Program-made: the position numbers and the translations under genes | Shown: piece after piece, positions 12,980 through 52,776 of the stretch | Numbering within the stretch: the first letter of the stretch is position 1 | How the letters are laid out: every line of letters starts with the position of its first letter | The notes under the pieces: model-generated | The model's database searches: none | The model's input: only the letters and a program-made list of their open reading frames with translations | What the model was told of the DNA's origin: nothing | DNA from: a virus | Lineage: Duplodnaviria > Caudoviricetes | Direction: 5' to 3' (one strand) | Length of the DNA: 53,878 nucleotides | IMG/VR virus record: IMGVR_UViG_3300049172_000115 | Location: 1 to 53,878 of that record

Positions 12980-15900
12980 CAGATCACCGCCGCCAGCGCG
13001 AGGCGGTTGACCACCCTGTGAGCTGTCATCTGTCCGTCCCCGGCCTCGTTGATGGTGAAGTGGTTCGTGATGGACGCCCCGCCCCGGCCGCCGGTGGCTC
13101 CGAGGATGTCCAACAGCCCGGACTGCTCCGCGAGCTGGCGGGCCCTGGCCGGGCGCGTGAGCGGGATGATGACCTCCGGGCCGGCCTCGCCGACGAGGGC
13201 AGGCGTCGGGCCGTAGACGATGCCGCCGTCCGCGAACGGCAGCAGGTTCGCGACCGACGACGGCAACCCGCTTTTGATCTTGTTTACGATTTGGCTGCCA
13301 ATGTTGCCCAGCGCTCCGGTGATCCGGCCGGGCAGGCTGGAGAACAGCCCGGCGATGGAGTCGATGAGGCCGCCGATCGCCCGCTGTGCGGCGCCCCAGG
13401 CGCCGCTGAAGACGTCGGCGATCCGGCTGCCGAGTCCGGAGAGGGCCGACCCGATCCGTCCCGGCAGCCCGGTGAAGAAGTTCACGACCCGCGACCCAAG
13501 GCTGGTTGCCGTGGACATGGCCTGACTGGCCATGTTCTGGAAGATGCCGAGGATCCGGCCGGGCAGGGTGGACACCGCCTGACTGGCACGGCCCGGGAGC
13601 TGGGCGAAGAAGGTCGTCGCGCTGGTCAGGAAGTTCTGGATCGCCGTCTGCACCGTCGTGAACGCCGTGTTGAACAACCCGAGCAGGGTGGTGCCCAGGC
13701 CGGCCAACGCGTTCCAGATCCTGCCCGGCAGCTCCGTGAAGACGAACACGATGCCAGCGATCGCCGTGCCGATCGCGATCACCAGGTTGGCGATCGCGCT
13801 GGTGAACAGCTCGATCAACAACCCTGGCAGGGAGGACAGGAAACCCATGATCATGCCTGGCAGGTTGGTGAAAAAGTCGAGCACGCCCTGAAAACCGGTC
13901 GTGATCGCAGTGCCCACCGTGGTGAACGCAGTGCTGAAAAAGGTGCTGATCGTCGAGCCGAACGTCGACAGGCCGGAGATGATCATTCCCGGCAGGCCGA
14001 CCACGAAATCGACCGCCGACGTCAGCCCGCCGATCAGGCCGGTGAGGACGGAGACGACGCCCTGGATCACCGGCACCACCACGTTGATCGCCACCCAGCC
14101 GAGGAACGCGGCAGCAATCTGCAACACCGGCCCGACGATCTGGATCAGCATCGACACGAGCGGCGTCAGTGACACGACCAGGTCGGCAATCGCCGGCACC
14201 AGTGGCAGGACCGCGTTCACGATCTCCAGGAAGGCGTCGATCAGCGGCGGAAGGATCGGCAGCAGCGCGGCCGCCAGCTCGGCGACGAGCGGGGCGAATG
14301 CCGCCGCCAGCTGAACAACAGCCCCGACGAGGGTCGTCATGACCGGCGCAAGTCCGGTGATGAGCTGGGCGAGTGCTTGACCCACGCCGGCCACGAGCGG
14401 GGAGATCGCGGCCACCAGCGTGGTGAAGGCAGAGGCCAGCGGCGGCAAGATCGGCATCAGCGCGTCGACCAGCGCGGTGATGATCGGGGCAAACGCGGCG
14501 GCCAGCGTCTCAAGAACCGGAGCCAGGGCTGTCGCCAGCACGGCCACGAGCTGGCCGGCCAGGGGCAGGAGCGGCGCCAGCGCGGTGAGGACGGCACCGA
14601 TCGACGCGCCGAGCGGACCCAGCGACGGGCCGATCGCGGCGAACGCATCGGAGAGGGCCTGGGCGACGACCTGGAGGCTCGGCACGATGGCGGCGATCGC
14701 CGGACCGATCGCGTTGATCACCCCGACGATCGCGGGTCCAAGCGTGGTGAAAATCGGAGCCAAGGCTGGCGCGATGGCACCGAGTTGGGTGATGAGGGCC
14801 GTCAGAATGGGGCCGATCTGCGCCGCGACGGTGGCCAGCGTTCGGAACACGTTGGCGATCGCCTCTTGGCCGGCCGCCGAGTTGACGAACTCGGCCATCG
14901 AGCTGGTGATCGCCTGGAGACTGCCGAGAAAGCCTCCGCCGGCCGTCTGGGCTGCCCGGAAGACCCCCGACAGGGCCGAGCCGACGTTGCCGATGATGTC
15001 GCCGAGCTGCGCGAACACGGTCAGCGCCTGGTCGACCCAGCGGACAGCATCGCCGCCGCGCGCGGCCTCCTGCAGAAAAGTCCCGAACCGCTGCCCGAGG
15101 GCGGAGATCCCGGAGGCGAGCTCGCCGCCGAACCGGTCGGAGATGGCGGCCGCCATCTGGAGGATGCCCGCGGTGAGTTTGTTCGTCGTCTGGCCAAGGG
15201 CGTCGACCGAGAGCTCCGTGGCGTCGAGGATCGACGTGATGTTGCTGACGCCCTGGGCACCCTGGACGTAGCCGAGGACACCCCGCGCCGCGTTGCCCCA
15301 GCCGGTGGCGATCGCGGTCAGACCCGACTGCAGCGGCCCGCTCAGCGCCTGCGCGGTGGCAGTGATCTGCCCTGCGATCTGGCCGAAGAACGCGTCCTGC
15401 ACTGATTCCCGCAAACCTTCGAACGCAGGCTTGAGGGCACGCACTTCACGGGCTGCGGCCTGAGCTGCCGGCGACAGGCCCTCGAGGGAGGCCTCGAACT
15501 CCTCGGCCGACCCCGTCAGTCCGGCGCTGAACGCTTCCGAGACGCCCATCAGCACCAGCCGTAGAGCGCCGAGCGCGGCCTGCCAGCCGAGGATGAGGGC
15601 AGGGAACGCGGCGACGATGCCCGCTGCTGGGGCGAGGGCGGCGACGAACCCGCCGATCGCCGTCGCTGCGCCGGCCGCAGCAATACCGACCGCGCCGATG
15701 ACGAGGAGCTGCTGCAGCGCGCCCGCAACCCGGCTCGCGATGCCGCCTAGACCGGACAGGGCACGCCCGAGGCGGTCGCTGTCGGTGTTGACGTTGACCG
15801 TGACATCCGGCGCGTTGTGCGCCCGGATGCGGGCGTCGAAGTCGTCCAGGTCGGGGACGACGCGGATGCTGACTTCCTGGCCTGCCAGCGCGGCACGCAG

Positions 15901-34568: not shown

Positions 34569-34742
34569 TCACCCCTGCTTGGCCGTGGCGGTGGCCTCCT
34601 TCGGCCGGACGATGCTGTTCTCGTACCGCTTGGCCACAGCCTTGGCGGTCGGCTCCAATCCGGAGGTGAACAGCACCTTCCCCGTGCCGCCGTTCGCGAC
34701 GACTTCGAACTGCTGACGCTTTCCCTTGCAGGCGCAAGCCAT
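34569..34742 (-). CDS. 57-aa basic phage protein (not in ORF track)
   Basis: MACACKGKRQQFEVVANGGTGKVLFTSGLEPTAKAVAKRYENSIVRPKEATATAKQG; start overlaps upstream stop. Confidence 0.7.
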   Translation of the reverse strand: MACACKGKRQQFEVVANGGTGKVLFTSGLEPTAKAVAKRYENSIVRPKEATATAKQG

Positions 34743-37700
34743 CAGGCTTCCCCTTCCGTTGCGGTGGTGTTGCCGGCCGCGATCTCCTCGCGGGCCGGAG
34801 CGATGATCGACGCGGCGAGACGCGCGGCTTCTTCCTTGGCTGCCTCCCGCTGTTCCTGGTGGCGGTTCATGGCCGTCACGAGGATGTCCAGGAACGGCAC
34901 GCTGCTCAGGAGCGCCGACGCGACAGCGTCAACGTCCTGCGTCTCCACGGCCGTTGTCCGGACACTGTCCGCCGGGTTGTCCGGAGCAATGTCCGGATCC
35001 TGTCCGTGCTGCTCAGGGCGCGTATCCGCGTCCGTCACTGTGGGCCGTCCGGACATGTCCGCCGGGGTGTCCGCGAGTTGTCCGGACGCGTCCGGATGGT
35101 CGAGGACTCCGGCGGCCGATGCCGCCAGAGCGAGGTTCGAGCGTTCGGCCACCGCGGTGGCGAGCAGTGGCGAGGAGTGACCCGGCACCGGCACCGAAAG
35201 GACCGCCCGGAGCTGCCACCGGCCGTTCGAACCTTGCTTCATGTGGTAGCTGGGCTGACACCCCTGGAAGACGGCACGGTCCCAGTCGGACAACCAGGGT
35301 CCTGCCGCGCCGGAGAACCAGAGGCCGCCCGAGTTCTGGCCGACCGTGACGATGCCCGCCACGGTCCTGGTGTCGTCGAATTGGCAGGCGGCCGACTCGC
35401 ATTCGGCGCCGTCGCGGTGGTGCGGGGCGTTCATGGTGAAGGCGCCCGCCTTCACCGTCGAACCGTCGTCCAGGCTGAACCGGGCCCGCAGGAAGTGCGA
35501 GAGGTCGAGCTTGCCCAAGGACTCGATCGTGAGCTTCCGGCCCGGGTATCCGGCGTGGGGTTCGCCGGCCTGTGCGACCCAGCCGTAGATCCGGCCGTCG
35601 GCGTAGTGCACGCCGCCGGAGCCGGGCGGCAGCTCTGCCGCGGTGGGCTCCTTGAACCATGCGGCGGGCATCGGCGGGAGTTCCTTCATCGCGGTCCAGG
35701 CCGACGCCACCAGGTCCCGCATGGACTCGTCCTCGTCGCCGAGGGGCGCGGCGGACGGTTCGACGTCGGCGGAGGCGACCACGGCCATGTCGGTGGACGG
35801 GCCGACGTACAGGCCGCGGGACAGGCGGACGATCAGGCCGGCCTTCGCCGCCTTCGCGAGGTGGCCGCGCGCCGTCTCCATCTTGATCCCCAGCCCCCGG
35901 GCGACGTCGCGTGCGCCGACCGGGGCCGGGGCGGACTTCACGAAGTTCACGACCTTGAGCTGCGCCGGAGACGGGCCGGCCGCCGACCACCATTCGTCAT
36001 CGTCCTCGACCGGGCCGGGCTCGGGCTGGTCGTCCAGCACGATGCGGGCCTGGTCGTACGCGGGCATCGCCACGAGCGTCGCGCCGCGCAGCCGGGCCCG
36101 GGTGATGCGCATCAGGAGGTCGCCGGACGACTCGCGGTGCACGACCGTGCCCCGGTTCTGGTCGTCGGCGTCGCCAGCGGCCGCGGTGAGCGTGCCCGTG
36201 CCGCCGAGGGCGGCCTGGACGGTGGCGGCGGTCACGCGGCCGTCCTGGCCGGTGATGAGCTGCACCGTGGACGCCTTGCGGGAGAGAGCGTCTCCGGAGG
36301 CGGTCCACTCGGTCACCGTGGTGGCGGTCAGCGACCAGGAGCCGTCATCCATGCGGAGCATCGACACGGACGGCAGCGACGCCAGCAGCATCACCGCGCC
36401 CTCGTCTTCGTCGCGGGTGCTGCGGTCCACGAACTCCACGCTCACGTCGTCCAGGTCGACGGAGATGCCCAGCGGGGCGCGCTCCTCCAGCAGCATGAGG
36501 GCGTCGGAGCCGGCCGCCAGACCGGGGTAGAGCACTCCGGTGCCGGTGATGCGATCGGCCGCCCGCCCGAGGGTCTGGATCGATCCGGCCAGCTCTGCGC
36601 CCTGGTGGCCCATCAGCATCTCGTCGGCATACTGCAGCGGCCACGGCCCAGCACCGGACCAGTACAGCGACCCGGGCCGGAACACACGGCCGTCGCCGGT
36701 CTCGGTGTTCTCGAACGCCAGGGCCGTATCCCCTGGGGTGGACCAGGCGCGGGCCGCGAGCGGGCCGGTCGTCAGCTGTTCGTCTTCGTCCATCCTGGTT
36801 GCCTCCTCTTCCCGGCCGAGCGGGATGTCGGTGTGCTCGCCGGCGAACGCGACCCGCAGCCTGTCGAAGCGGATCGGCCCGAGGCGCTGGTTCATCGCGG
36901 TCAGCAGGGACGGGCTGCGGGTGTACGCGGCGCACACGTGGGGCTGCCACGGGCTGTGCTGCGTGGGAAGGTCGGGCTGCCGGTGCATGTCCTCCAGCGC
37001 GTAGGTGGCCGCCCAGCGGGCCGTCTCGAGCGTCGGGGCGTCCTGGGGCCGGTCGCGGTCGTCGCTGACGGACCACACCCAGCACGGGTCTTCACCGTCG
37101 GCGTTCCACTGGTTCGCACCGAACGCCCGCCCGGTGACGGGCTGGCCGATGTCGGGGGCGCGGGAGCGTAGGGCGGCGATCAGGTCGGCGCGCTGCTCCT
37201 CGTCCCAGTCGGCGCCTTCACCGAGGTAGAACAGCGTCAGGTGCAGCTCGTCGGCCGGTTCCGAGCCGGTGGCGTCGAGGACCAGGCGGGCCGCGTCCTC
37301 CTCGCTGGGCATCAGGGCGATCATCGCGCCCGTGTGACCACCGGCGGCGGTCACGGTTGAGGCGACTTCCACACTGCTCTCCTCAGATTCCAAGACGTCG
37401 GTGCGCAGTGCATCCTGCGCTTCGTAGGTCGCGGCCTGAAGTTCGGGCGCGACCGCAAGGCGGCAGCGGCAGTTGACGACGAGCGCGGCCGGGGCCGAAG
37501 GGTCGCCAGGGGCCTGCATCTCGACGCCGGCGACGGTAAACGGCTCCGCGAGCAGCTGGATCTGACCGTCCACCTCGTCGTGAGCCGACCGCACCCGGGC
37601 GTCGTGCCGCGTCACCCACTGCTTCACCAAGGGCCGGTCCGGGCCGGTCGCCGCCCGCGCCGCCGCCAGGGTGGCCGTGTTCCAGGCCCGGGTCGCTTCG

Positions 37701-38206
37701 GTCCGGGCGATGCGCTGCTCCCGCCCAGGGCCAAGGTGGCTGCCCTCGCGGGTGAAGGCGGCACGCAGCCGGGCACGCAGCTGGTCGACGTCCTCGCCGG
37801 CGTCGACACCGGCCGCGAGCTCGGCGCGGGCGGCTTCCGCCAAGCGGTCGCCGACCGCCCGCAACAGATGCTCGGTCGTCTCGACGTACTGGCCCATGCC
37901 CTCGGGCAGCGTGCCGTCGTCGTACCTGGCGGGAAGGTCGTCCCAGCCGTCGGGGAGTTCACCGCCGACGTCCTCGGCGGCGGCCACCGCGGCGGTCTCA
38001 GCAGTCCCGAGGAGGCGCCGGACGAGGCTTCGGGTGCGGTTGCCCCACATGCGGGCGATCCGGCCGACTGAGAACCGGGCGGCGACCAGCTCGGTCGCGG
38101 CCTGGACGGCGTCGGCGAACTCGTCGGCGGTGGCGGTGAGCGCCTGGCCGACCGCTTCGGCGAAGTCGGCCTCGGCCTGGTCGAGCTGGCGGTCGCGGTC
38201 AGCCAT
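34742..38206 (-). CDS. MuF-like head morphogenesis / 2H phosphoesterase / capsid maturation protease fusion
   Basis: RIARTE, KQWVT..DARVRSAH, NCRC (MuF); HLT and HVC (2H); TGDGR, GISVDLDD, LRGATLVAMPAY (protease); internal wHTH. Confidence 0.85.
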   Translation of the reverse strand: MADRDRQLDQAEADFAEAVGQALTATADEFADAVQAATELVAARFSVGRIARMWGNRTRSLVRRLLGTAETAAVAAAEDVGGELPDGWDDLPARYDDGTLPEGMGQYVETTEHLLRAVGDRLAEAARAELAAGVDAGEDVDQLRARLRAAFTREGSHLGPGREQRIARTEATRAWNTATLAAARAATGPDRPLVKQWVTRHDARVRSAHDEVDGQIQLLAEPFTVAGVEMQAPGDPSAPAALVVNCRCRLAVAPELQAATYEAQDALRTDVLESEESSVEVASTVTAAGGHTGAMIALMPSEEDAARLVLDATGSEPADELHLTLFYLGEGADWDEEQRADLIAALRSRAPDIGQPVTGRAFGANQWNADGEDPCWVWSVSDDRDRPQDAPTLETARWAATYALEDMHRQPDLPTQHSPWQPHVCAAYTRSPSLLTAMNQRLGPIRFDRLRVAFAGEHTDIPLGREEEATRMDEDEQLTTGPLAARAWSTPGDTALAFENTETGDGRVFRPGSLYWSGAGPWPLQYADEMLMGHQGAELAGSIQTLGRAADRITGTGVLYPGLAAGSDALMLLEERAPLGISVDLDDVSVEFVDRSTRDEDEGAVMLLASLPSVSMLRMDDGSWSLTATTVTEWTASGDALSRKASTVQLITGQDGRVTAATVQAALGGTGTLTAAAGDADDQNRGTVVHRESSGDLLMRITRARLRGATLVAMPAYDQARIVLDDQPEPGPVEDDDEWWSAAGPSPAQLKVVNFVKSAPAPVGARDVARGLGIKMETARGHLAKAAKAGLIVRLSRGLYVGPSTDMAVVASADVEPSAAPLGDEDESMRDLVASAWTAMKELPPMPAAWFKEPTAAELPPGSGGVHYADGRIYGWVAQAGEPHAGYPGRKLTIESLGKLDLSHFLRARFSLDDGSTVKAGAFTMNAPHHRDGAECESAACQFDDTRTVAGIVTVGQNSGGLWFSGAAGPWLSDWDRAVFQGCQPSYHMKQGSNGRWQLRAVLSVPVPGHSSPLLATAVAERSNLALAASAAGVLDHPDASGQLADTPADMSGRPTVTDADTRPEQHGQDPDIAPDNPADSVRTTAVETQDVDAVASALLSSVPFLDILVTAMNRHQEQREAAKEEAARLAASIIAPAREEIAAGNTTATEGEA
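34955..35098. repeat. second cluster of TGTCCG(GACA) motifs inside protease gene 3' end
   Basis: Full or partial copies at 34955, 34966, 34978, 34990, 35001, 35046, 35056, 35068, 35079, 35089. Confidence 0.7.
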
Positions 38207-44777: not shown

Positions 44778-45400
44778 TCCTCGCTGCTGTCCTCTTCGCC
44801 GGCGGGCGCCGGATCGGGTCCTTCCTCATCATCGACGCCGTCGACCGCGCGGAGCCGCCGGTTCACGGCCGCCGCCAGGTCCGCGAGGCGTACGCGCCGC
44901 TGGTCGGCCGGGAGCTGCGCGAACTCGGCGATCTGCACTGCGAGCGCGTTCCCGCCCTGGCCGGTGACCGCGATCGTCTCGGTCGGGTCGCCGAACAGGA
45001 CGCGCCGGTGACGCATGGCCACGTCCATCAGCCGGATGAAGTCGCCCGGTGACAGGTCCTCGGCGCGCAGGGTGCCCAGGCGCTGCGCCAGCTTGCCGAT
45101 CGCTGCGCCCAGGATCTTCGCGTCCGACTCGGCGGCCTTGCGGCGTTCCTCCAGCCACGTGGCCTCGTACAGCCGGTCCAGGTGCCTGTCCCACGCCTCG
45201 ACGCGCTCTCGCCACCGGTACTCGGCTGCGGTGTTCCTCACGTGCCCGTGCGCGAGTGTCAGGGTCTCCGCAGCCTTTGCCAGTGTGCGGGCCCTCCCGA
45301 GGTCCCGGTACGTGACGAACTGTCCGTGTTTGCGGGCTGACTCCTTGGGTTGGCGCTCCCAGGGGTCCAGTGCGGGGTCGAGGACGAGCGTCGTGGTCAC
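44774..45400 (-). CDS. terminase small subunit
   Basis: PWERQPKES...YRDLG..RTL...WRERVEAWD; coupled to TerL. Confidence 0.8.
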   Translation of the reverse strand: MTTTLVLDPALDPWERQPKESARKHGQFVTYRDLGRARTLAKAAETLTLAHGHVRNTAAEYRWRERVEAWDRHLDRLYEATWLEERRKAAESDAKILGAAIGKLAQRLGTLRAEDLSPGDFIRLMDVAMRHRRVLFGDPTETIAVTGQGGNALAVQIAEFAQLPADQRRVRLADLAAAVNRRLRAVDGVDDEEGPDPAPAGEEDSSEE

Positions 45401-46341
45401 GGCTGGCCGTCCCCGTTGGTGCTGTTCCAGTTGGGTCCGGACAGGTACTCACCTGCCAGGCGCTCGAGGAGTCTCCAGCCCTGCCCCTGCTCGATCTCGC
45501 CGCGTCCTTCTGCTGCTGCGATGGCCTTGTTGATGGTGACGGCTGCTGGTGCTGGGAGTGTGCGGGTGCCGAGGACGGTCTCAAGCCCGACGGTGCCCGA
45601 GTGCAGGGGCTCGCCTTCTGGGGACTGGTAGCCGGCCTGGAGGTCGGTGAGGTGGGTCTCGGTGATGGCGAGGATGGCGTGGAGGGCGGTCGCCACGTTG
45701 CCGACCTTGTGGGCGGCGTGGGTGGAGGCGAGGGTGTCTAGGGTCTGCTCGTAGTCCGCGCGGGCGGCGAGCCAGCTTTCGTTCTGGCCGAGGCGGGCCT
45801 CCTCGAACGCGGTGCGGGCGGCTTCCAGCTCGGCGGGCAGGAAGATCAGGCTGACGGTGGCGAAGTCGAGGTTCGCCTCGCTGAGCCCTTCGGGGCTGAC
45901 TTCGGCGAGGAGCTTGAGCTGGTCGTCGTCCAGGCCGGAGTAGGCGCGCCAGTCGACGTCGTCCAGCTCCTCGTAGAGCTGCTTGAGCGTGGCCGGGTCG
46001 TCCTCGCCCGCGATGGCGTTGTGGGACAGCTGGATCGCGACGAGCTGCTGGCGGGTCAGCTGCTCCTCGATGAGCATGCAGTCGATCTCGTCCAGGCCGG
46101 CGTCGATCGACGCCATGGTGCGGTGGTTCCCGGAGAGGACCAGTTCGCGGCCCTCGTCGTACTCGCCGCCGGAGTAGATCAGCGGGGTGGAGGTGAGGCA
46201 GCCGTCCCGCTTCACGTTCTCCACCAGCCGGTCGTACTCCTCCTTCCGCATGTAGCGGGCGTTCACCTCCAGACGGGTGAGGAGCCGCGGGTCACGCCGG
46301 ACGAGCCGGGGCCGGAACAGGGGGGTGATCGTGTCGGTCAT
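45397..46341 (-). CDS. ParB/Srx N-terminal-domain protein
   Basis: NARYM...LVENVKRDG...VLSGNHR...HNAIAGEDD. Confidence 0.85.
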   Translation of the reverse strand: MTDTITPLFRPRLVRRDPRLLTRLEVNARYMRKEEYDRLVENVKRDGCLTSTPLIYSGGEYDEGRELVLSGNHRTMASIDAGLDEIDCMLIEEQLTRQQLVAIQLSHNAIAGEDDPATLKQLYEELDDVDWRAYSGLDDDQLKLLAEVSPEGLSEANLDFATVSLIFLPAELEAARTAFEEARLGQNESWLAARADYEQTLDTLASTHAAHKVGNVATALHAILAITETHLTDLQAGYQSPEGEPLHSGTVGLETVLGTRTLPAPAAVTINKAIAAAEGRGEIEQGQGWRLLERLAGEYLSGPNWNSTNGDGQP

Positions 46342-47690
46342 CGCTCGTCCTTACCGTGCTTCGTCTTCCACAGCTCCAGGGCGCCGGCGAGGTCGTACTC
46401 GCCGAGGGGGCCGCCGTACTGGAGCTGGTAGCGGTGGATCCCGTCGCCCGGGTCCTTGGGGGTAGCCTCGGTGCGCTTCTGCAGCTTCACGCCTGGGATG
46501 CCCCGGCCGTACTTCGCCGAGTTGGGCCGGTCGGTGAACGCCGTGGTGGCCCAGCCGGTGATCCGCTTCGACAGCGACCGCTGGATGAGGAGCTGCGCCT
46601 CCTTCGTGGAGGCGGCCATCACGATCAGCTTGGCCAGGCGCCGGTAGCGGGTCCACGACACCGGGAAGTCGGACATCAGGTAGGCCGTGTTCGGGTCGAA
46701 CTTCGGCGGCAGGTAGGCGAACGCGCCGATCAGCTTCCCGTCGACCGCGACACCGCAGGCGATGAGCGGGCTGCCGGGCTTGATCGTCTTGGACATGAAC
46801 TGAGATCTGACGGCCGCGAATTGGCCGCCCGTCAGGATGTGGAGGCTCATCCGGTCGCCGAGGACGTCGTCCTTGCCGATCTTCGGCATCGGGATCGGCT
46901 CGACGGGCTGGCGGGGACGGACGATACGGCGGGGGCCGGAGGCGGCGTACACGTAGATCGGCAGGCCGCGGTTCGCGGTCTGGACGACGCCGGCGAGCCG
47001 GTGGCGCAGCTCCGGGCGTTCGATGTGCAGGCCGAGGACCCAGTTGGGCCGGTCCTGGACCTGCTCGATGATGCGTTCCTTGCCGTCCTCGGTCAGCTCG
47101 TCGAAGCTGGGCGGGGGCCAGTCGAACGCGGCGTCGATGCTGGCGAACTGCGCTTGGTAGTCGGCCGCGTAGAACGGCGGGAACATGACGACGGGCGCTT
47201 CGGGCGGGACCTGGTCGAGGTAGTCGCGGACGTCGCCGGCGAAGAACGAGCCGAGGCGGGTCTCCAGGGTCTTCAGCTTCGTGGCCGTCTTCTCGTGCAT
47301 GCGCGGCCACTGGTCGCGGGTGGCGGCCATCATCCGCCGGTAGTAGACGCCTTCCTTGCCGACGTACTGGAGGAAGCGTGTGCCGAGCATGAGGGTGGCG
47401 AGCAGGTCGGTGCGGTCTTCGAGGTAGGGGCGTAGCCAGCCCAGTTCCTCTTCGTGGTCCTCGCGGAGCGTGAACGGCAGCGGGTCGCCGGCCAGGTACC
47501 AGCCCAGGGCGCACGAGTACGCCTGGATGTCGTTGCCGTGGACCGGCCGGGAGTTCCCGAACCGCGAGTGCAGCACCCGCTCGATGGTGAAGTTGCCGGA
47601 GCAGCCGACGTAGATGTCGCTCTCCGGCCAGGCGCCCGCGTGCTCGTAGATGATCGAGCGGAGGGGCGCGGGAATCGATCCGTGGAACAT
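46338..47690 (-). CDS. adenine-methylase-fold / GNAT(Mom)-like fusion, putative DNA modification enzyme
   Basis: YVGCSGNF, NDI, GDVRDY, FPPFY (Dam-like motifs, motif IV altered); C-terminal VAVDGKLIGAFAY...RRLAKLIV...TTAFT GNAT-like topology. Confidence 0.65.
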   Translation of the reverse strand: MFHGSIPAPLRSIIYEHAGAWPESDIYVGCSGNFTIERVLHSRFGNSRPVHGNDIQAYSCALGWYLAGDPLPFTLREDHEEELGWLRPYLEDRTDLLATLMLGTRFLQYVGKEGVYYRRMMAATRDQWPRMHEKTATKLKTLETRLGSFFAGDVRDYLDQVPPEAPVVMFPPFYAADYQAQFASIDAAFDWPPPSFDELTEDGKERIIEQVQDRPNWVLGLHIERPELRHRLAGVVQTANRGLPIYVYAASGPRRIVRPRQPVEPIPMPKIGKDDVLGDRMSLHILTGGQFAAVRSQFMSKTIKPGSPLIACGVAVDGKLIGAFAYLPPKFDPNTAYLMSDFPVSWTRYRRLAKLIVMAASTKEAQLLIQRSLSKRITGWATTAFTDRPNSAKYGRGIPGVKLQKRTEATPKDPGDGIHRYQLQYGGPLGEYDLAGALELWKTKHGKDER

Positions 47691-47802
47691 CGACGTGACT
47701 CCCTGGTGTCAGCGGGAGGGGCTCTTGAACGGAGCGGGGATGGTAGCCGACCTGACGGGCCGTCCCCCGGTCGTCGGTGCAGGCCAGAGGCCCGGGAATG
47801 AC

Positions 47803-47835
47803 CGAAGCCCCCGGGGGTGACACCCGGGGGCTTCG
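47803..47835 (-). terminator. 13-bp hairpin just downstream of the tRNA
   Basis: cgaagcccccggg-N7-cccgggggcttcg. Confidence 0.7.
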
Positions 47836-47840
47836 AGGAG

Positions 47841-47914
47841 TGGAGCGCCAGCCTGGATTTGAACCAGGACCTCCCACCGGGAAGGTGGGTGTGCTGCTGT
47901 TGCACTACTGACGC
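47841..47914 (-). tRNA. tRNA-Gly(TCC), atypical, CCA encoded
   Basis: GCGTCAG TA GTGC AACAGCA GCAC A CCCAC CT-TCC-CG GTGGG AGGT CCTGG TTCAAAT CCAGG CTGGCGC T CCA; all four stems pair. Confidence 0.92.
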
Positions 47915-48917: not shown

Positions 48918-49862
48918 TCAGAACGGGGCGGGGCAGTCCGTGCAGTTGGCCGTGGGGTAGCAGGGCCGGTGCGGGGCCGCTGTGTCTCCGCAGTGGACGC
49001 AGTCGGTCGTGTGGTGCCAGTGGCCGGTGAGCACGGCCAGGGCCTCGTTGAGGGAAGCGGCGCCGATCATGCGGATGCCGTTGACGGCGTCGACTCCGCT
49101 TCCTCCGGCCTTGGAGGGCACCAGGACGGTCGTGGTGCCGGTCTCAGCGAGCGCTTCCATGACGAACGTGAGGCCGGGCGGGACGCGGAGCGCTCCGTCG
49201 AGGCCGAGTTCGCCGACCAGCGTGACGCCGGCCAGGCATTCGGCGGGGATCTCGCCGGCGGCGGCCAGGGCGGTGCAGGCGATCGCGAGGTCGAGGCCGC
49301 TGCTGCGGCCCTTGGCGCCCTCGCTGACCGGCGTGACCTGGACGAGCATGTTCACCTTCGGCCAGGCCAGGCCGCTGTTGGAGATTCCGGCGCGCACACG
49401 GTCGCGGGTCTCGACGTGCCCCCAGTCGGGCAGCCCGTCCACCTGGAAGCACGGCAGGCCGGGGACGCTGCTCGCCTTCACCCGGTAGCCGCTGGAGAGG
49501 GCCGCGCCCAGGGCTTCGGCCGTGCCGAACGGCTCGTCCTCGGCGGCCGGCTCGGGCTGGGGGTCGCCCCCCTCGTAGTTCTCCAACTGGCTGTCCGGGC
49601 TGAGCCCGTACGAGCCGATGCCCGACTGTTTCCGCAGCTCGTTCACGAGCTGGTCGACGGCCGCGCGGGCGCTGGTGGCGTGCTCGAGGTGGACTGACCC
49701 CAGGGCGTCCATGGCGTCGACGCCGATCTCCTCGAGGACGGTGGCGCGCTGGGTGGGGTCGGTCGGGGCCGCGGCGACGTCCCACAGGGTGAAGCCGGTG
49801 CCGGCGTCCTGGCCGACGATGATGAACTCGCGGGTCGCGGTGACGCTCTCGGTGGTGCTCAT
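48918..49862 (-). CDS. protein with ComM/YifB N-terminal (ChlI/Lon-like) domain, no AAA+ domain
   Basis: GLPCFQVDGLPD...ETRDRVRAGISNSG..WP...SGLDLAIA...GELGLDGALR. Confidence 0.8.
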   Translation of the reverse strand: MSTTESVTATREFIIVGQDAGTGFTLWDVAAAPTDPTQRATVLEEIGVDAMDALGSVHLEHATSARAAVDQLVNELRKQSGIGSYGLSPDSQLENYEGGDPQPEPAAEDEPFGTAEALGAALSSGYRVKASSVPGLPCFQVDGLPDWGHVETRDRVRAGISNSGLAWPKVNMLVQVTPVSEGAKGRSSGLDLAIACTALAAAGEIPAECLAGVTLVGELGLDGALRVPPGLTFVMEALAETGTTTVLVPSKAGGSGVDAVNGIRMIGAASLNEALAVLTGHWHHTTDCVHCGDTAAPHRPCYPTANCTDCPAPF

Positions 49863-49897
49863 GCTGGACGTGTCCTTCCGTGTCGGGTGGAGCCGGT

Positions 49898-50383
49898 TCA
49901 CTGGTTGCCGAAGTGCTCAGCGAGGGTGGAGAGCTGTTCGACCTGGGCGGCGCTGAGGACGTCGTTGTCGTCGCCGTACTCGCCGTACAGCTCGACTCCG
50001 GCGCGCAGCGCGCCGAGCAGGTCGAGCGGGGCGAGGACGCTCAGCGGGCCGGTCAGCGGGTTCTCGGCCGGGATCTCGCGCTGGACGGTGACCAGTTCGC
50101 GGCAGCGGAAGAAGTGCAGCCGGCTGTCGATCTCGACCGCGGTCGACGTCTCCTCGTGGACGTAGCGGACGGCGGTCCAGCTCGGGGAACACCAGGAGAC
50201 CTTGGCGTCGATCAGGATCGTCATCCAGTGGTCGTCACCGAACTGTGCGGCCGGGTCGTCATCGTCGTTCCAGACGTCGAGGACCTCTCGCCAAACGCCG
50301 TCGATCAGGACGGTGTCGTTGTCGGCGAGGTCGACCGCGCGGATGCTGTCGGTCGTCCAAGTGGATCGGATGGGTGTGCTCAC
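49898..50383 (-). CDS. hypothetical phage protein
   Basis: 161-aa ORF, GGAGG RBS. Confidence 0.75.
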   Translation of the reverse strand: MSTPIRSTWTTDSIRAVDLADNDTVLIDGVWREVLDVWNDDDDPAAQFGDDHWMTILIDAKVSWCSPSWTAVRYVHEETSTAVEIDSRLHFFRCRELVTVQREIPAENPLTGPLSVLAPLDLLGALRAGVELYGEYGDDNDVLSAAQVEQLSTLAEHFGNQ

Positions 50384-50883: not shown

Positions 50884-52776
50884 TCATGCGCTCCGGTCGG
50901 CGTAGCGGTCGATCTCCTCGCCGGTGATGCACTCGACCAGCGCACACAGCAGCACCTCCGCCGCCGGGGGCGTGACTGCGTTCCCGTACTGGCGGACCTG
51001 GTCCCGCTTCGACCCGAGCACCCGGTAGTTGTCGGCGAAGGCCATCGCCCGGCCGATCTCGTGAGGCTGGAGCATCCTGAACAGAACCTTCGAGAGGTCG
51101 TACTCGCCTTCCGCGTTCAGCAGCGCGTACCGGTCCCGGGTGGGCAGGGTGCCGATAGGCTCGGACGTCGGCCGCGCCTGCCCGTTGCCGTAGTACGGGA
51201 CCAGGAGCCCGTCCCCGGGGGTGATCAGCGACTGGTGGCCGGTCGTCGTCATGGTGCGGAGCGGCTCGTCGACGCCTGTGCACATCTGCGCGGGGTTGCC
51301 CCTGGGGGTGTTGTTCCGCATGACCAGCGGGGTGGGCGACGTGATCAGGCCGTGGTGGTTGCCTCCGGCTGAGACGGTGTGGAGCGGCTGACTGATGTCC
51401 CGGGCCTTCTCCTTGTCGCCGCCGCCTCGCATGGGCACCACGAACGGGGCGTAGGCGATCGCCGTTTCCGCTCGAGCGGTCTGCGTGCGCAGTGGGTCTT
51501 CCAGCCGCATTGCCTTCTTCCCGTCGCGGCCCTCGCACGGGATCAGCAGGGGCGGGACCACGAGCGCGTCGCTCTCGACCGTCGTCCGGGTCGGCATCGG
51601 GGTGTCGACACTGGTCCCGCCCCTGCGCCACGTGCCTCCGGTGGGGACGAGGAGCGGAGCCATCCGGCCCGCTTCCTCCGCGTCGCCGAACAGCGACCCC
51701 TGGCCGTCGACGTCGAGGAGGCCGCCGGGCTGCGGCCAGTAGCGGGCGACGCCCGCGCGGATGCGCGCCATCGTCGCCGGGGCCAGGCCCTCGGGGCAGT
51801 CCTTGCTCTTGGGCCGGCTGCCGATCGGTGTCCCCTTGATCGACCAGTCGATCGCCGCGGCGGCCGGGAGCGTCTCGGGCTCGACGAGCGCGCGGCACGT
51901 CGCTCGGGGGCACCTGTAGTCGTAGCTGCTGCGGTAGCGGCCCATGTCCTTGCCGGGCTGGCGGAAGACCTGCAGTGCGGCCACGACTTCGCCGCAGTCC
52001 GAGCACCAGGCCCTCGGCCGCAGCCACTTGTCCCAGTCCGGGGTGCGGCCGAGGCTCTTGTGCCAGTAGGCGACGTACAGCCGGTCACGGGACTGCGGCG
52101 CCCGGTGTACCGACCTCGGGTCGGCATGCATGCTGTTCAGGGCGATGACCCGCGTGCGGTAGCCCATCTTGTGGAACTCGCCCAGCCAGCTGTCCCATTC
52201 GCCCCACGCGCGGACGTCGATCACGTTCTCGACCACGCCGGCCTTGACCAGGCCACCGCGCTCGATGACACCTCGGAGGTAGAGCGGGATCTCCTCCATG
52301 AGGGCGCGCGACGCCTCTTCTTCCTCGGTCGGGCCGTTGTCCTCTTCGTCGCCCGTCTTGAACTTCGACTCCTCCATGTCCGCGTACAGGTCGAGGAGGT
52401 CGCCCTGCACGGCCTTGGCGAAGCTGCGCTTCTTCCCCTTGGCGATGGACCAGTTCGTGCACTCTGGCGAGCCCCAGTGGATGTCTGCGATCGGCCAGGC
52501 CCAGACGGGAGCCTTGCGGATGTCGCCCATGTAGTGCGCGACGCCCGGGAAGTTCATGGCGTGGGACTTGAGTGCCTGCTTCCAGTGGTTCGCCGCGAGG
52601 TACACGCGCAGGCCCGGCACCGCTTCTGCGGCCTGGGAGCTGCCGCCCGCGCCGCAGAACCAGTCCATGACGCTGAGGTCGCCGCTGTCGTGTTTGAAGA
52701 AGCGCACGCGGCTGGGGGCCTTGGCCGCTTCGGAGGCTGCCGCCCAGGAGCGGGAAGTGGAGTCGATGTAAGGCAC
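50884..52776 (-). CDS. DNA (cytosine-5) methyltransferase
   Basis: DWFCGAGG (I), SPECT (IV), ENV (VI), PQSRDR (VIII), QYGNAV (X). Confidence 0.95.
   Translation of the reverse strand: MPYIDSTSRSWAAASEAAKAPSRVRFFKHDSGDLSVMDWFCGAGGSSQAAEAVPGLRVYLAANHWKQALKSHAMNFPGVAHYMGDIRKAPVWAWPIADIHWGSPECTNWSIAKGKKRSFAKAVQGDLLDLYADMEESKFKTGDEEDNGPTEEEEASRALMEEIPLYLRGVIERGGLVKAGVVENVIDVRAWGEWDSWLGEFHKMGYRTRVIALNSMHADPRSVHRAPQSRDRLYVAYWHKSLGRTPDWDKWLRPRAWCSDCGEVVAALQVFRQPGKDMGRYRSSYDYRCPRATCRALVEPETLPAAAAIDWSIKGTPIGSRPKSKDCPEGLAPATMARIRAGVARYWPQPGGLLDVDGQGSLFGDAEEAGRMAPLLVPTGGTWRRGGTSVDTPMPTRTTVESDALVVPPLLIPCEGRDGKKAMRLEDPLRTQTARAETAIAYAPFVVPMRGGGDKEKARDISQPLHTVSAGGNHHGLITSPTPLVMRNNTPRGNPAQMCTGVDEPLRTMTTTGHQSLITPGDGLLVPYYGNGQARPTSEPIGTLPTRDRYALLNAEGEYDLSKVLFRMLQPHEIGRAMAFADNYRVLGSKRDQVRQYGNAVTPPAAEVLLCALVECITGEEIDRYADRSA

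Follow-up and report, generated by a model that had tools for sequence, protein, structure and literature searches.

What is a phage tRNA for when it carries the full set of features by which glycyl-tRNA synthetase (GlyRS) would recognize it, and departs from the canonical pattern at positions that serve decoding? The question is raised by a stretch of viral DNA of 53,878 bp from the IMG/VR collection (virus record IMGVR_UViG_3300049172_000115, Duplodnaviria, Caudoviricetes; about 70% G+C, completeness estimate 81%; referred to throughout as the window), for which a phage collection search returned no near-identical DNA match. ARAGORN finds a sole tRNA gene in it, a minus-strand tRNA-Gly(UCC) with an encoded CCA at 47841..47914. 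Starting 150 nt downstream of this tRNA is a minus-strand gene (46338..47690) for a fusion protein of 450 amino acids (aa), composed of a Dam-like and a GNAT-like domain, and next to it comes a gene for a ParB-like protein; the three genes together are called the module below. The answer favored here, at a probability of roughly 0.6, is that the tRNA serves as the glycine donor of the neighboring Dam-like/GNAT enzyme and is not specialized for translation.

Selective constraint on the module tRNA

The tRNA gene is recognized by Rfam model RF00005 with 54.8 bits (E 1.3e-10; gathering score 29) and, with 90.5 bits, by R1, a covariance model of the family that was built from 32 module tRNAs of close relatives. 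Its product fits a cloverleaf with the 7/4/5/5-bp stems of a canonical elongator tRNA-Gly, in which the 7-bp acceptor stem comprises G1-C72, C2-G71, G3-C70, one U4-G69 wobble and A6-U67, the 4-bp D stem carries the loop AACAGCA with a single G in place of G18G19, the 5-bp anticodon stem carries the loop CUUCCCG (C32, U33, U34, C35, C36, C37 and G38), the variable loop is 4 nt long, and the T stem CCUGG/CCAGG, with U-A at 51-63, bears a normal UUCAAAU loop. The 3' end reads U73 followed by the CCA, so that the full GlyRS identity set (G1-C72, C2-G71, G3-C70, U73, C35, C36) is present. The canonical combination of a purine at position 37 with a non-Watson-Crick 32-38 pair is not found (C37, C32/G38), and the canonical elbow is half kept, there being no D-loop GG but a T loop that starts with UUC; U8, U33, C35 and C36 are likewise kept.

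An earlier sequence-only reading of this locus had listed the GlyRS elements, U73, C35/C36, the CCA and the paired stems, together with C37 and the loss of the D-loop GG, all of which are indeed there when the minus strand is read. It had also counted U51-A63 among the deviations; the pair is present, and it is uninformative as a deviation because 6/32 unique tRNAs of a Streptomyces host carry U-A at 51-63. The family's most consistent deviation, G38, which is able to pair with C32, was absent from its list. The reading had concluded that the tRNA is not a decayed gene, that it can be charged, and that it is routed away from ribosomes. How do these three propositions fare once the relatives of this tRNA are brought in?

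The first is borne out by covariation. Across 32 relatives, 92.6% of the cells of the cloverleaf are paired and 10/22 pairs have changed on both sides, values that are reached by 0/500 shuffles, with the slid controls pairing only 36-46%; A6-U67 of the window tRNA is itself a compensated change from the relatives' G6-C67. Nor is C37 a private lesion, since the closest relatives, L023 and L047, have it as well and it turns up independently in other members of the family (L013, L133/L136, L142 and L154).

The other two propositions can be set against a comparison of 66 unique module tRNAs called by ARAGORN with the 32 unique tRNAs of a Streptomyces lysogen genome (G001). The combination of G1C2G3/C70G71C72 with U73 occurs in 66/66 module tRNAs, and C35 and C36 occur in 62/62, all of these positions being varied among the host tRNAs; the conserved elements coincide exactly with the GlyRS identity determinants as listed in PMC7826273. 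To the extent that charging can be judged from sequence, this invariance supports the proposition that the tRNA is chargeable.

Quite a different picture emerges at the positions that serve the U-turn, codon stacking, wobble decoding and the D/T-loop elbow. In the anticodon loop, U33, present in 32/32 host tRNAs, is retained in 55/62 module tRNAs (lost in 7/62), and a purine at position 37, again found in 32/32 host tRNAs, is retained in 50/62, the other 12/62 having a pyrimidine (C in 8, U in 4), whereas G38, found in 0/32 host tRNAs, occurs in 54/62. Position 34 of the module tRNAs is U in 48, C in 9 and A in 5 cases, and to our knowledge A34 in a glycine tRNA does not make a normal bacterial decoding anticodon. 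Anticodon loops of other than 7 nt are seen in 4/66 module tRNAs and 0/32 host tRNAs, and among the module tRNAs there are 6- and 8-nt loops as well as G55. Outside the anticodon arm, U8 persists in 56/66 module tRNAs (lost in 10/66) versus 32/32 in the host, the D-loop GG in 20/66 (absent from 46/66) versus 32/32, and the T loop starts with TGC instead of TTC in 20/66 versus 0/32; G51-C63 is the commonest host pair at that place (15/32), yet it occurs in 0/66 module tRNAs. Nothing in the lysogen's own tRNA-Gly(UCC) departs from the canonical pattern: it has A37, A38, G18G19 and TTC. Judged by this comparison, the U-turn, codon-stacking/wobble and D/T-loop elbow positions of the module tRNAs are apparently under relaxed constraint, which, taken together with the synteny with a GNAT-domain enzyme described below, supports the proposition that the tRNA is probably routed away from ribosomes.

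The fusion enzyme and its partners across phages

If such a tRNA does not serve the ribosome, what might it serve? A clue comes from the genomic company that it keeps. Close homologues, 71-92% identical to the enzyme, were examined at 17 IMG/VR loci and at 32 actinobacterial prophage loci of Streptomyces, Kitasatospora, Embleya, Nonomuraea and Streptosporangium, the two sets overlapping in part. ARAGORN places a tRNA-Gly upstream of the enzyme gene in 14/17 IMG/VR and 22/32 prophage loci, and with R1 added the tRNA totals rise to 17/17 and 29/32, respectively; in the IMG/VR set, 14/17 tRNAs stand directly upstream and those of L007 and L017 are 1.3-1.7 kb off. Members missed by RF00005 and ARAGORN and recovered by R1 include those of L002, L007, L015, L019 and others. 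The module tRNA of the prophage in the lysogen G001 (L025), which has the anticodon loop UCUCCGG and a T loop starting with UGC, does not appear among the 66 matches reported for RF00005 in that genome, and general tRNA searches can therefore miss such genes.

The association holds in a much wider set, comprising the best 80 of 119 IMG/VR relatives from a profile-based scan, with 33-90% protein identity and a locus G+C of 29-72%. A tRNA is detected by ARAGORN or R1 in 59/80 of these viral loci, 51 times on the same strand and no more than 400 nt upstream of the enzyme gene, twice adjacent on the opposite strand and six times farther away. Every tRNA in the 541 kb that make up the 80 loci is a glycine tRNA (tcc, ccc or acc) or an odd-loop Gly-like element, no other isotype being found. 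The ACC anticodon is seen upstream of the enzyme gene in L109, L133, L136 and L162 and downstream of it in L108, two tandem copies of the module tRNA are present in L116 and L133, and L138, a distant viral locus without a module tRNA, shows a tmRNA-like Rfam match (RF00023, 63.9 bits) at L138:6092-6217. Still more constant is the third member of the module: a ParB-like homologue lies directly downstream of the fusion gene in 82/82 related loci. In the window, this protein has 314 aa and a ParB/Srx N-terminal domain (45397..46341, minus strand; phrog_7405 with E 8.8e-70, alongside ParB-like PHROGs), and the first 4 nt of its gene are also the last 4 nt of the fusion gene.

The arrangement recurs in named phages. 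In Mycobacterium phage Jeon of cluster W, whose enzyme is 43.7% identical, a tRNA-Gly(tcc) is annotated 36 nt upstream of the enzyme gene; the genome announcement of its relative Taptic mentions just one tRNA-Gly(TCC), without suggesting what it does (PMC5356062). Gordonia phage Jollymon has an unannotated tRNA-Gly-like element (L019:3821-3894, about 13125-13198 of PV467702.1), found by R1 with 48.4 bits and missed by ARAGORN and RF00005, directly upstream of gene 29 ('methyltransferase'). A limited control, the surroundings of close relatives of the phage Mu protein Mom, gave 0 tRNAs in 43 loci (199 kb).

What kind of enzyme is it that so often has a glycine tRNA for its neighbor? Two Pfam domains follow one another in the fusion protein, both well over the gathering cut-off of 27: PF22555, named 'Phage DNA Adenine Methylase-like domain 1' (aa 2-271, about 46878-47687; 357.5 bits, E 5.7e-107), and PF22559, named 'Phage GNAT-like domain' (aa 279-446, about 46353-46856; 189.3 bits, E 5.7e-56). 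The AlphaFold2 models have a confidence (pLDDT) of 95.3 for the full-length protein and of 93.8 for the GNAT domain. Foldseek matches the N-terminal domain to Escherichia coli Dam (2ore, 4rtm, 4rtq and 4rtn) with a probability of 1.0. With the Dam family it thus shares the fold and the motif I/II-like residues (VGCSG and NDV; G32 in 96/96 relatives, D54 in 95/96); it is unlike Dam in being always fused to a GNAT domain, in having no sequence similarity by family profile to any solved Dam, and in what stands at the expected motif IV site. There, after strand 167-169 as located by pattern and strand order, it reads F170-P-P-F173 rather than (D/N/S)PP(Y/F), position 170 being F in 58/96 and Y in 30/96 relatives, i.e. 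an aromatic (F/Y)PPF in 88/96.

The C-terminal domain matches GNAT acetyltransferases with a Foldseek probability of 1.0, and when 48161 representative PDB chains were compared by VIA-align, Mu Mom (8bv8_B) came second (Z 11.1, root-mean-square deviation 3.3 A over 143 aligned residues), a match between a model and a structure that is a lead, not proof. Structures of Fem, L/F-transferase and TacT are absent among the best 50 matches listed from the wide structural search, which does not exclude them, and by sequence, with both single and profile queries, the enzyme gives only chance matches to PDB chains (E 0.025 or worse). CoA-dependent GNATs carry the motif Q/RxxGxG/A in the beta4-alpha3 segment. 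In the 96 relatives this segment reads Y-x-R-L-S/A-K-L, without glycines and without Q/RxxGxG/A, and it has near-invariant basic residues at R351, K354, K393 and R396.

The family is large, with 814 clusters (50% identity) reaching an E of at most 1e-3, and NCBI and UniRef call its members either 'putative antirestriction adenine methyltransferase' or 'hypothetical protein', the former phrase occurring in no open-access paper or bioRxiv preprint searched. There is no NCBIfam family for the fusion enzyme, for the ParB-like protein or for the 172-aa protein encoded upstream. Some homologues of about 680-710 aa (P0003, P0010, P0167, P0175 and P0178) have an insertion right after (F/Y)PPF, at about query residue 174-177; some of them are named 'Hint domain-containing protein' by NCBI and one contains PF14528 (LAGLIDADG), and the insertion looks like an intein at the probable active-site motif.

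Glycine donor, decoder or target?

Are there known systems in which a glycine tRNA serves something other than the ribosome? Two come close. In the first, Mom of phage Mu, itself a GNAT, is reported to move glycine from Gly-tRNAGly onto the N6 of deoxyadenosine in double-stranded DNA, the adduct rearranging to 6-NcmdA, and to use host tRNAs, all three E. coli isoacceptors working (PMC13219725). Common to Mom and the window enzyme are a phage-encoded GNAT fold that is tied to tRNA-Gly and DNA adenine and an anti-restriction role, the latter being suggested here by database names. Mom differs in being a stand-alone protein of 241 aa with a helix-turn-helix-like insertion that relies on host tRNAs and has no detectable sequence homology to the window enzyme, whereas in the module the GNAT domain is fused to a Dam-like domain, the ParB-like gene is always next to it and there is usually a non-canonical tRNA-Gly of its own.

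In the second, the non-proteogenic tRNAGly(UCC) species of staphylococci are reported to have TGC or TGT T loops, to bind EF-Tu poorly and to act as donors for the GNAT-fold Fem transferases (PMC7826273). These species (NP1-3, which serve FmhB, FemA and FemB in building pentaglycine bridges) resemble the module tRNAs in keeping the GlyRS elements and losing conserved D- and T-loop features: the same TGC T loop is found in 20/66 module tRNAs, a D-loop GG is missing from most of the 66, and both groups are presumed donors for a GNAT-fold aminoacyl transferase. Unlike the staphylococcal type, the window tRNA keeps a TTC T loop, and the module tRNAs at large are phage-encoded, linked to a DNA-enzyme-like fusion and variable at positions 33, 34 and 37, while the staphylococcal lineage is reported to be confined to staphylococci and linked to Fem transferases and the cell wall. 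The context of the window tRNA points to the neighboring Dam-like/GNAT enzyme as its destination rather than to cell-wall synthesis, which the staphylococcal species serve. A precedent also exists for the third gene, as ParB-like proteins are reported to activate phage thymine dioxygenases (5mYOX) (PMC13229309); there, too, a phage enzyme of the DNA-base-modifying type stands beside an obligate ParB-like partner, with the difference that it is an iron- and 2-oxoglutarate-dependent dioxygenase instead of a Dam-like/GNAT protein and that no tRNA is involved.

From these precedents together, the following mechanism is proposed for the module. Host RNase P and 3' processing would release the tRNA, the window copy already encoding its CCA, and host GlyRS would glycylate it, because the identity set (G1-C72, C2-G71, G3-C70, U73, C35, C36) is invariant. 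The resulting Gly-tRNA pool would be largely insulated from EF-Tu and the ribosome, as the family-wide relaxed constraint suggests, because fitness for decoding is not maintained in an anticodon loop with the C32-G38 closure and C37 or in a D/T-loop core that has no G18. The GNAT-like domain, which has no acyl-CoA P-loop motif, would take the glycyl group from the 3' end of the tRNA, and this group would be transferred to a base of the phage DNA, most likely to the N6 of adenine. Meanwhile, the Dam-like domain, with the catalytic D/N/S-PP-Y/F altered to (F/Y)-P-P-F, would hold or flip the target base, and its former S-adenosylmethionine (SAM) pocket may have been repurposed, for example for the glycyl-adenosine end of the tRNA. 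The ParB-like partner might load or activate the enzyme on DNA, as is suggested by synteny, by the folds and by the precedents of Mom and of the ParB-like activators. By analogy, the outcome would likely be a Mom-like anti-restriction hypermodification of phage DNA. Glycyl transfer to DNA adenine as the specific chemistry is put forward only tentatively, and similar caution applies to the general proposal that phages of 29-72% GC carry a DNA-aminoacylation cassette made up of an orthogonal tRNA-Gly, a Dam-derived base-flipper/GNAT glycyl-transferase and a ParB-like loader.

Of all this, the gene, its conservation and synteny, the pattern of selection and the folds are observed, and the charging, the avoidance of translation, the donor role, DNA as the target and the chemistry are inferred. 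Several points weigh against the tRNA being a glycine donor for this enzyme. The window tRNA might still decode to some degree because U8, U33 and the UUC start of the T loop are kept, and a tRNA is not obligatory for the enzyme, since 21/80 enzyme loci of the wide set show none nearby by ARAGORN, R1 or Rfam. Regarding the link to Mom, many ordinary acetyltransferases lie within about 1-1.5 Z of the Mom match, hhalign of the family alignment against Mu Mom gives a probability of 0.4, the Pfam family of Mom (PF25680) is not matched at E up to 10, with PF22555 and PF22559 as the only families listed, and the authors of the Mom study themselves hold that the co-substrate is not predictable from GNAT structure (PMC13219725). 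As for the Dam-like domain, its motif IV was placed by pattern and strand order, and the enzyme could be, or could also be, a methyltransferase, because its SAM-binding-like motifs I and II are conserved. What, then, are the alternatives, and how well do they account for the module?

The one that survives best, unlikely though it is, would make the element an ordinary decoding tRNA, which either boosts the decoding of GGA and GGG or replaces a host tRNA-Gly that has been depleted or cleaved by defense systems such as anticodon nucleases or toxSAS toxins, among them FaRel2, which targets tRNAGly; the changes in the anticodon loop would then be escape mutations. According to one proposal, mutations in their anticodon loops let phage tRNAs escape host tRNases (PMC10264068), a toxSAS that picks tRNAGly via its acceptor stem has been reported (PMC11559606), and the window tRNA retains U33, U8, the UUC start, C35 and C36, as such a role would have it. 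However, the loss of U33, the A34, the 6- and 8-nt loops and the G55 seen in the family are incompatible with efficient decoding, and it would be left unexplained why, in very different phages, the sole tRNA is always glycine-specific and placed directly upstream of one enzyme family. Demand for such a tRNA does not seem pressing either: GGA is not enriched in the window (100/13309 codons, 8% of the Gly codons), and the lysogen genome G001 has a canonical tRNA-Gly(UCC) of its own.

Somewhat less probable is that the tRNA is the target of the enzyme rather than its co-substrate, with the GNAT domain N-acylating Gly-tRNA in the manner of TacT and AtaT, or the Dam-like domain methylating the tRNA, so that the enzyme would yield a modified (aminoacyl-)tRNA that acts in regulation, as a toxin or against defenses. 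The tight synteny is good grounds for an interaction between enzyme and tRNA and is silent on which partner donates, and the acetylation of Gly-tRNAGly by GNAT toxins has a precedent in TacT (cited in PMC13219725). An acetylating toxin would, however, require the acyl-CoA P-loop motif that the GNAT domain does not have, and the Dam-like fold and the obligate ParB-like partner point to DNA, in keeping with the ParB-like activators reported in PMC13229309; the module, moreover, adjoins terminase genes.

Just as improbable is a SAM-using anti-restriction adenine methyltransferase accompanied by a tRNA-like element that acts in cis, by signaling RNase P processing or by stabilizing or regulating the downstream mRNA, or that supports tRNA-dependent lysogeny, standing in for a host tRNA disrupted on integration. 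This would agree with the database name 'putative antirestriction adenine methyltransferase' and with the motif I/II-like residues (G32 in 96/96, D54 in 95/96), and tRNA-dependent lysogeny is reported to exist in actinobacteriophages (PMC10865867). Yet a cis element would have no need of a GlyRS identity set that is invariant in 66/66 module tRNAs, the catalytic polar residue of motif IV has given way to F or Y in 88/96 relatives, and the always-fused GNAT domain would remain unexplained; tRNA-dependent lysogeny in particular is made unlikely by the lysogen G001, whose own tRNA-Gly(UCC) is still intact and canonical. The idea that the tRNA is a remnant of an attP site was rejected, the gene being full-length, internal to the record, located beside terminase genes and found in Mycobacterium and Gordonia phage genomes as well.

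Surroundings in the window and wider meaning

Almost all genes of the window lie on the minus strand according to a GC3 frame analysis, and the ParB-like gene is followed by the genes for the small and then the large terminase subunit. Between the tRNA and the enzyme gene, 5 nt past the CCA, RNA folding predicts a perfect, G+C-rich hairpin of 14 bp without a U-tract (47802..47836, minus strand), within a 150-nt segment (47691-47840, minus strand) that as a whole has a minimum free energy of -71.6 kcal/mol (z -2.27); it may serve for termination or for processing, and a scan for consensus promoters and terminators around the tRNA found nothing. Two genes upstream of the tRNA, a 327-aa protein (48918-49901, minus strand) matches only the ChlI/YifB-type Mg-chelatase-like AAA region (PF13541, with TIGR00368 far under its cut-off). 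A C5-cytosine DNA methyltransferase of 630 aa is encoded at 50884-52776 (minus strand), its PF00145 and PHROG matches being split into aa 35-124 and aa 524-612 with about 400 unexplained aa in between. Farther away, 34742-38206 (minus strand) encodes a protein of 1154 aa that contains a head-morphogenesis domain of the Mu F-like kind (PF04233) and a stretch weakly resembling AbiEi_4; Pfam matches nothing in the two adjoining open reading frames (1436 and 1369 aa).

How new would all this be? In open-access papers and bioRxiv preprints, supplements aside, no description was found of the module or of a phage non-translational tRNA as a co-substrate of DNA modification, and the main text of the Mom study (PMC13219725), again apart from its supplements, makes no mention of 'phage-encoded tRNA', 'encode tRNA' or 'fusion'. 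The supplements of the Mom and ParB papers, which were outside the literature search, may list homologues or gene neighborhoods that bear on novelty. As to its components, the module is a widespread and unexpected combination of known kinds, namely tRNA-dependent GNAT transferases and non-proteogenic tRNAGly.

If the tRNA is indeed the glycine donor of the Dam-like/GNAT enzyme, this would be the first virus found to encode a tRNA that is dedicated to a non-translational task, as co-substrate in the hypermodification of its genome, and the use of Gly-tRNA, found for Mom in 2026, would be extended to another enzyme family, which is far larger and of distinct structure. A new anti-restriction DNA modification is probable, and it could be sought in laboratory systems that lend themselves to testing, such as the cluster W phages of Mycobacterium smegmatis, the cluster CP phages of Gordonia and the prophages of Streptomyces. 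For the engineering of orthogonal tRNAs, the module tRNA would offer a natural example of a chargeable tRNA that has been freed from translation. Single phage tRNA genes are usually assigned one of three roles, i.e. codon supply, escape from tRNA-cleaving defenses or tRNA-dependent lysogeny; the module suggests a fourth, in which a phage tRNA is a dedicated amino-acid donor for DNA chemistry.

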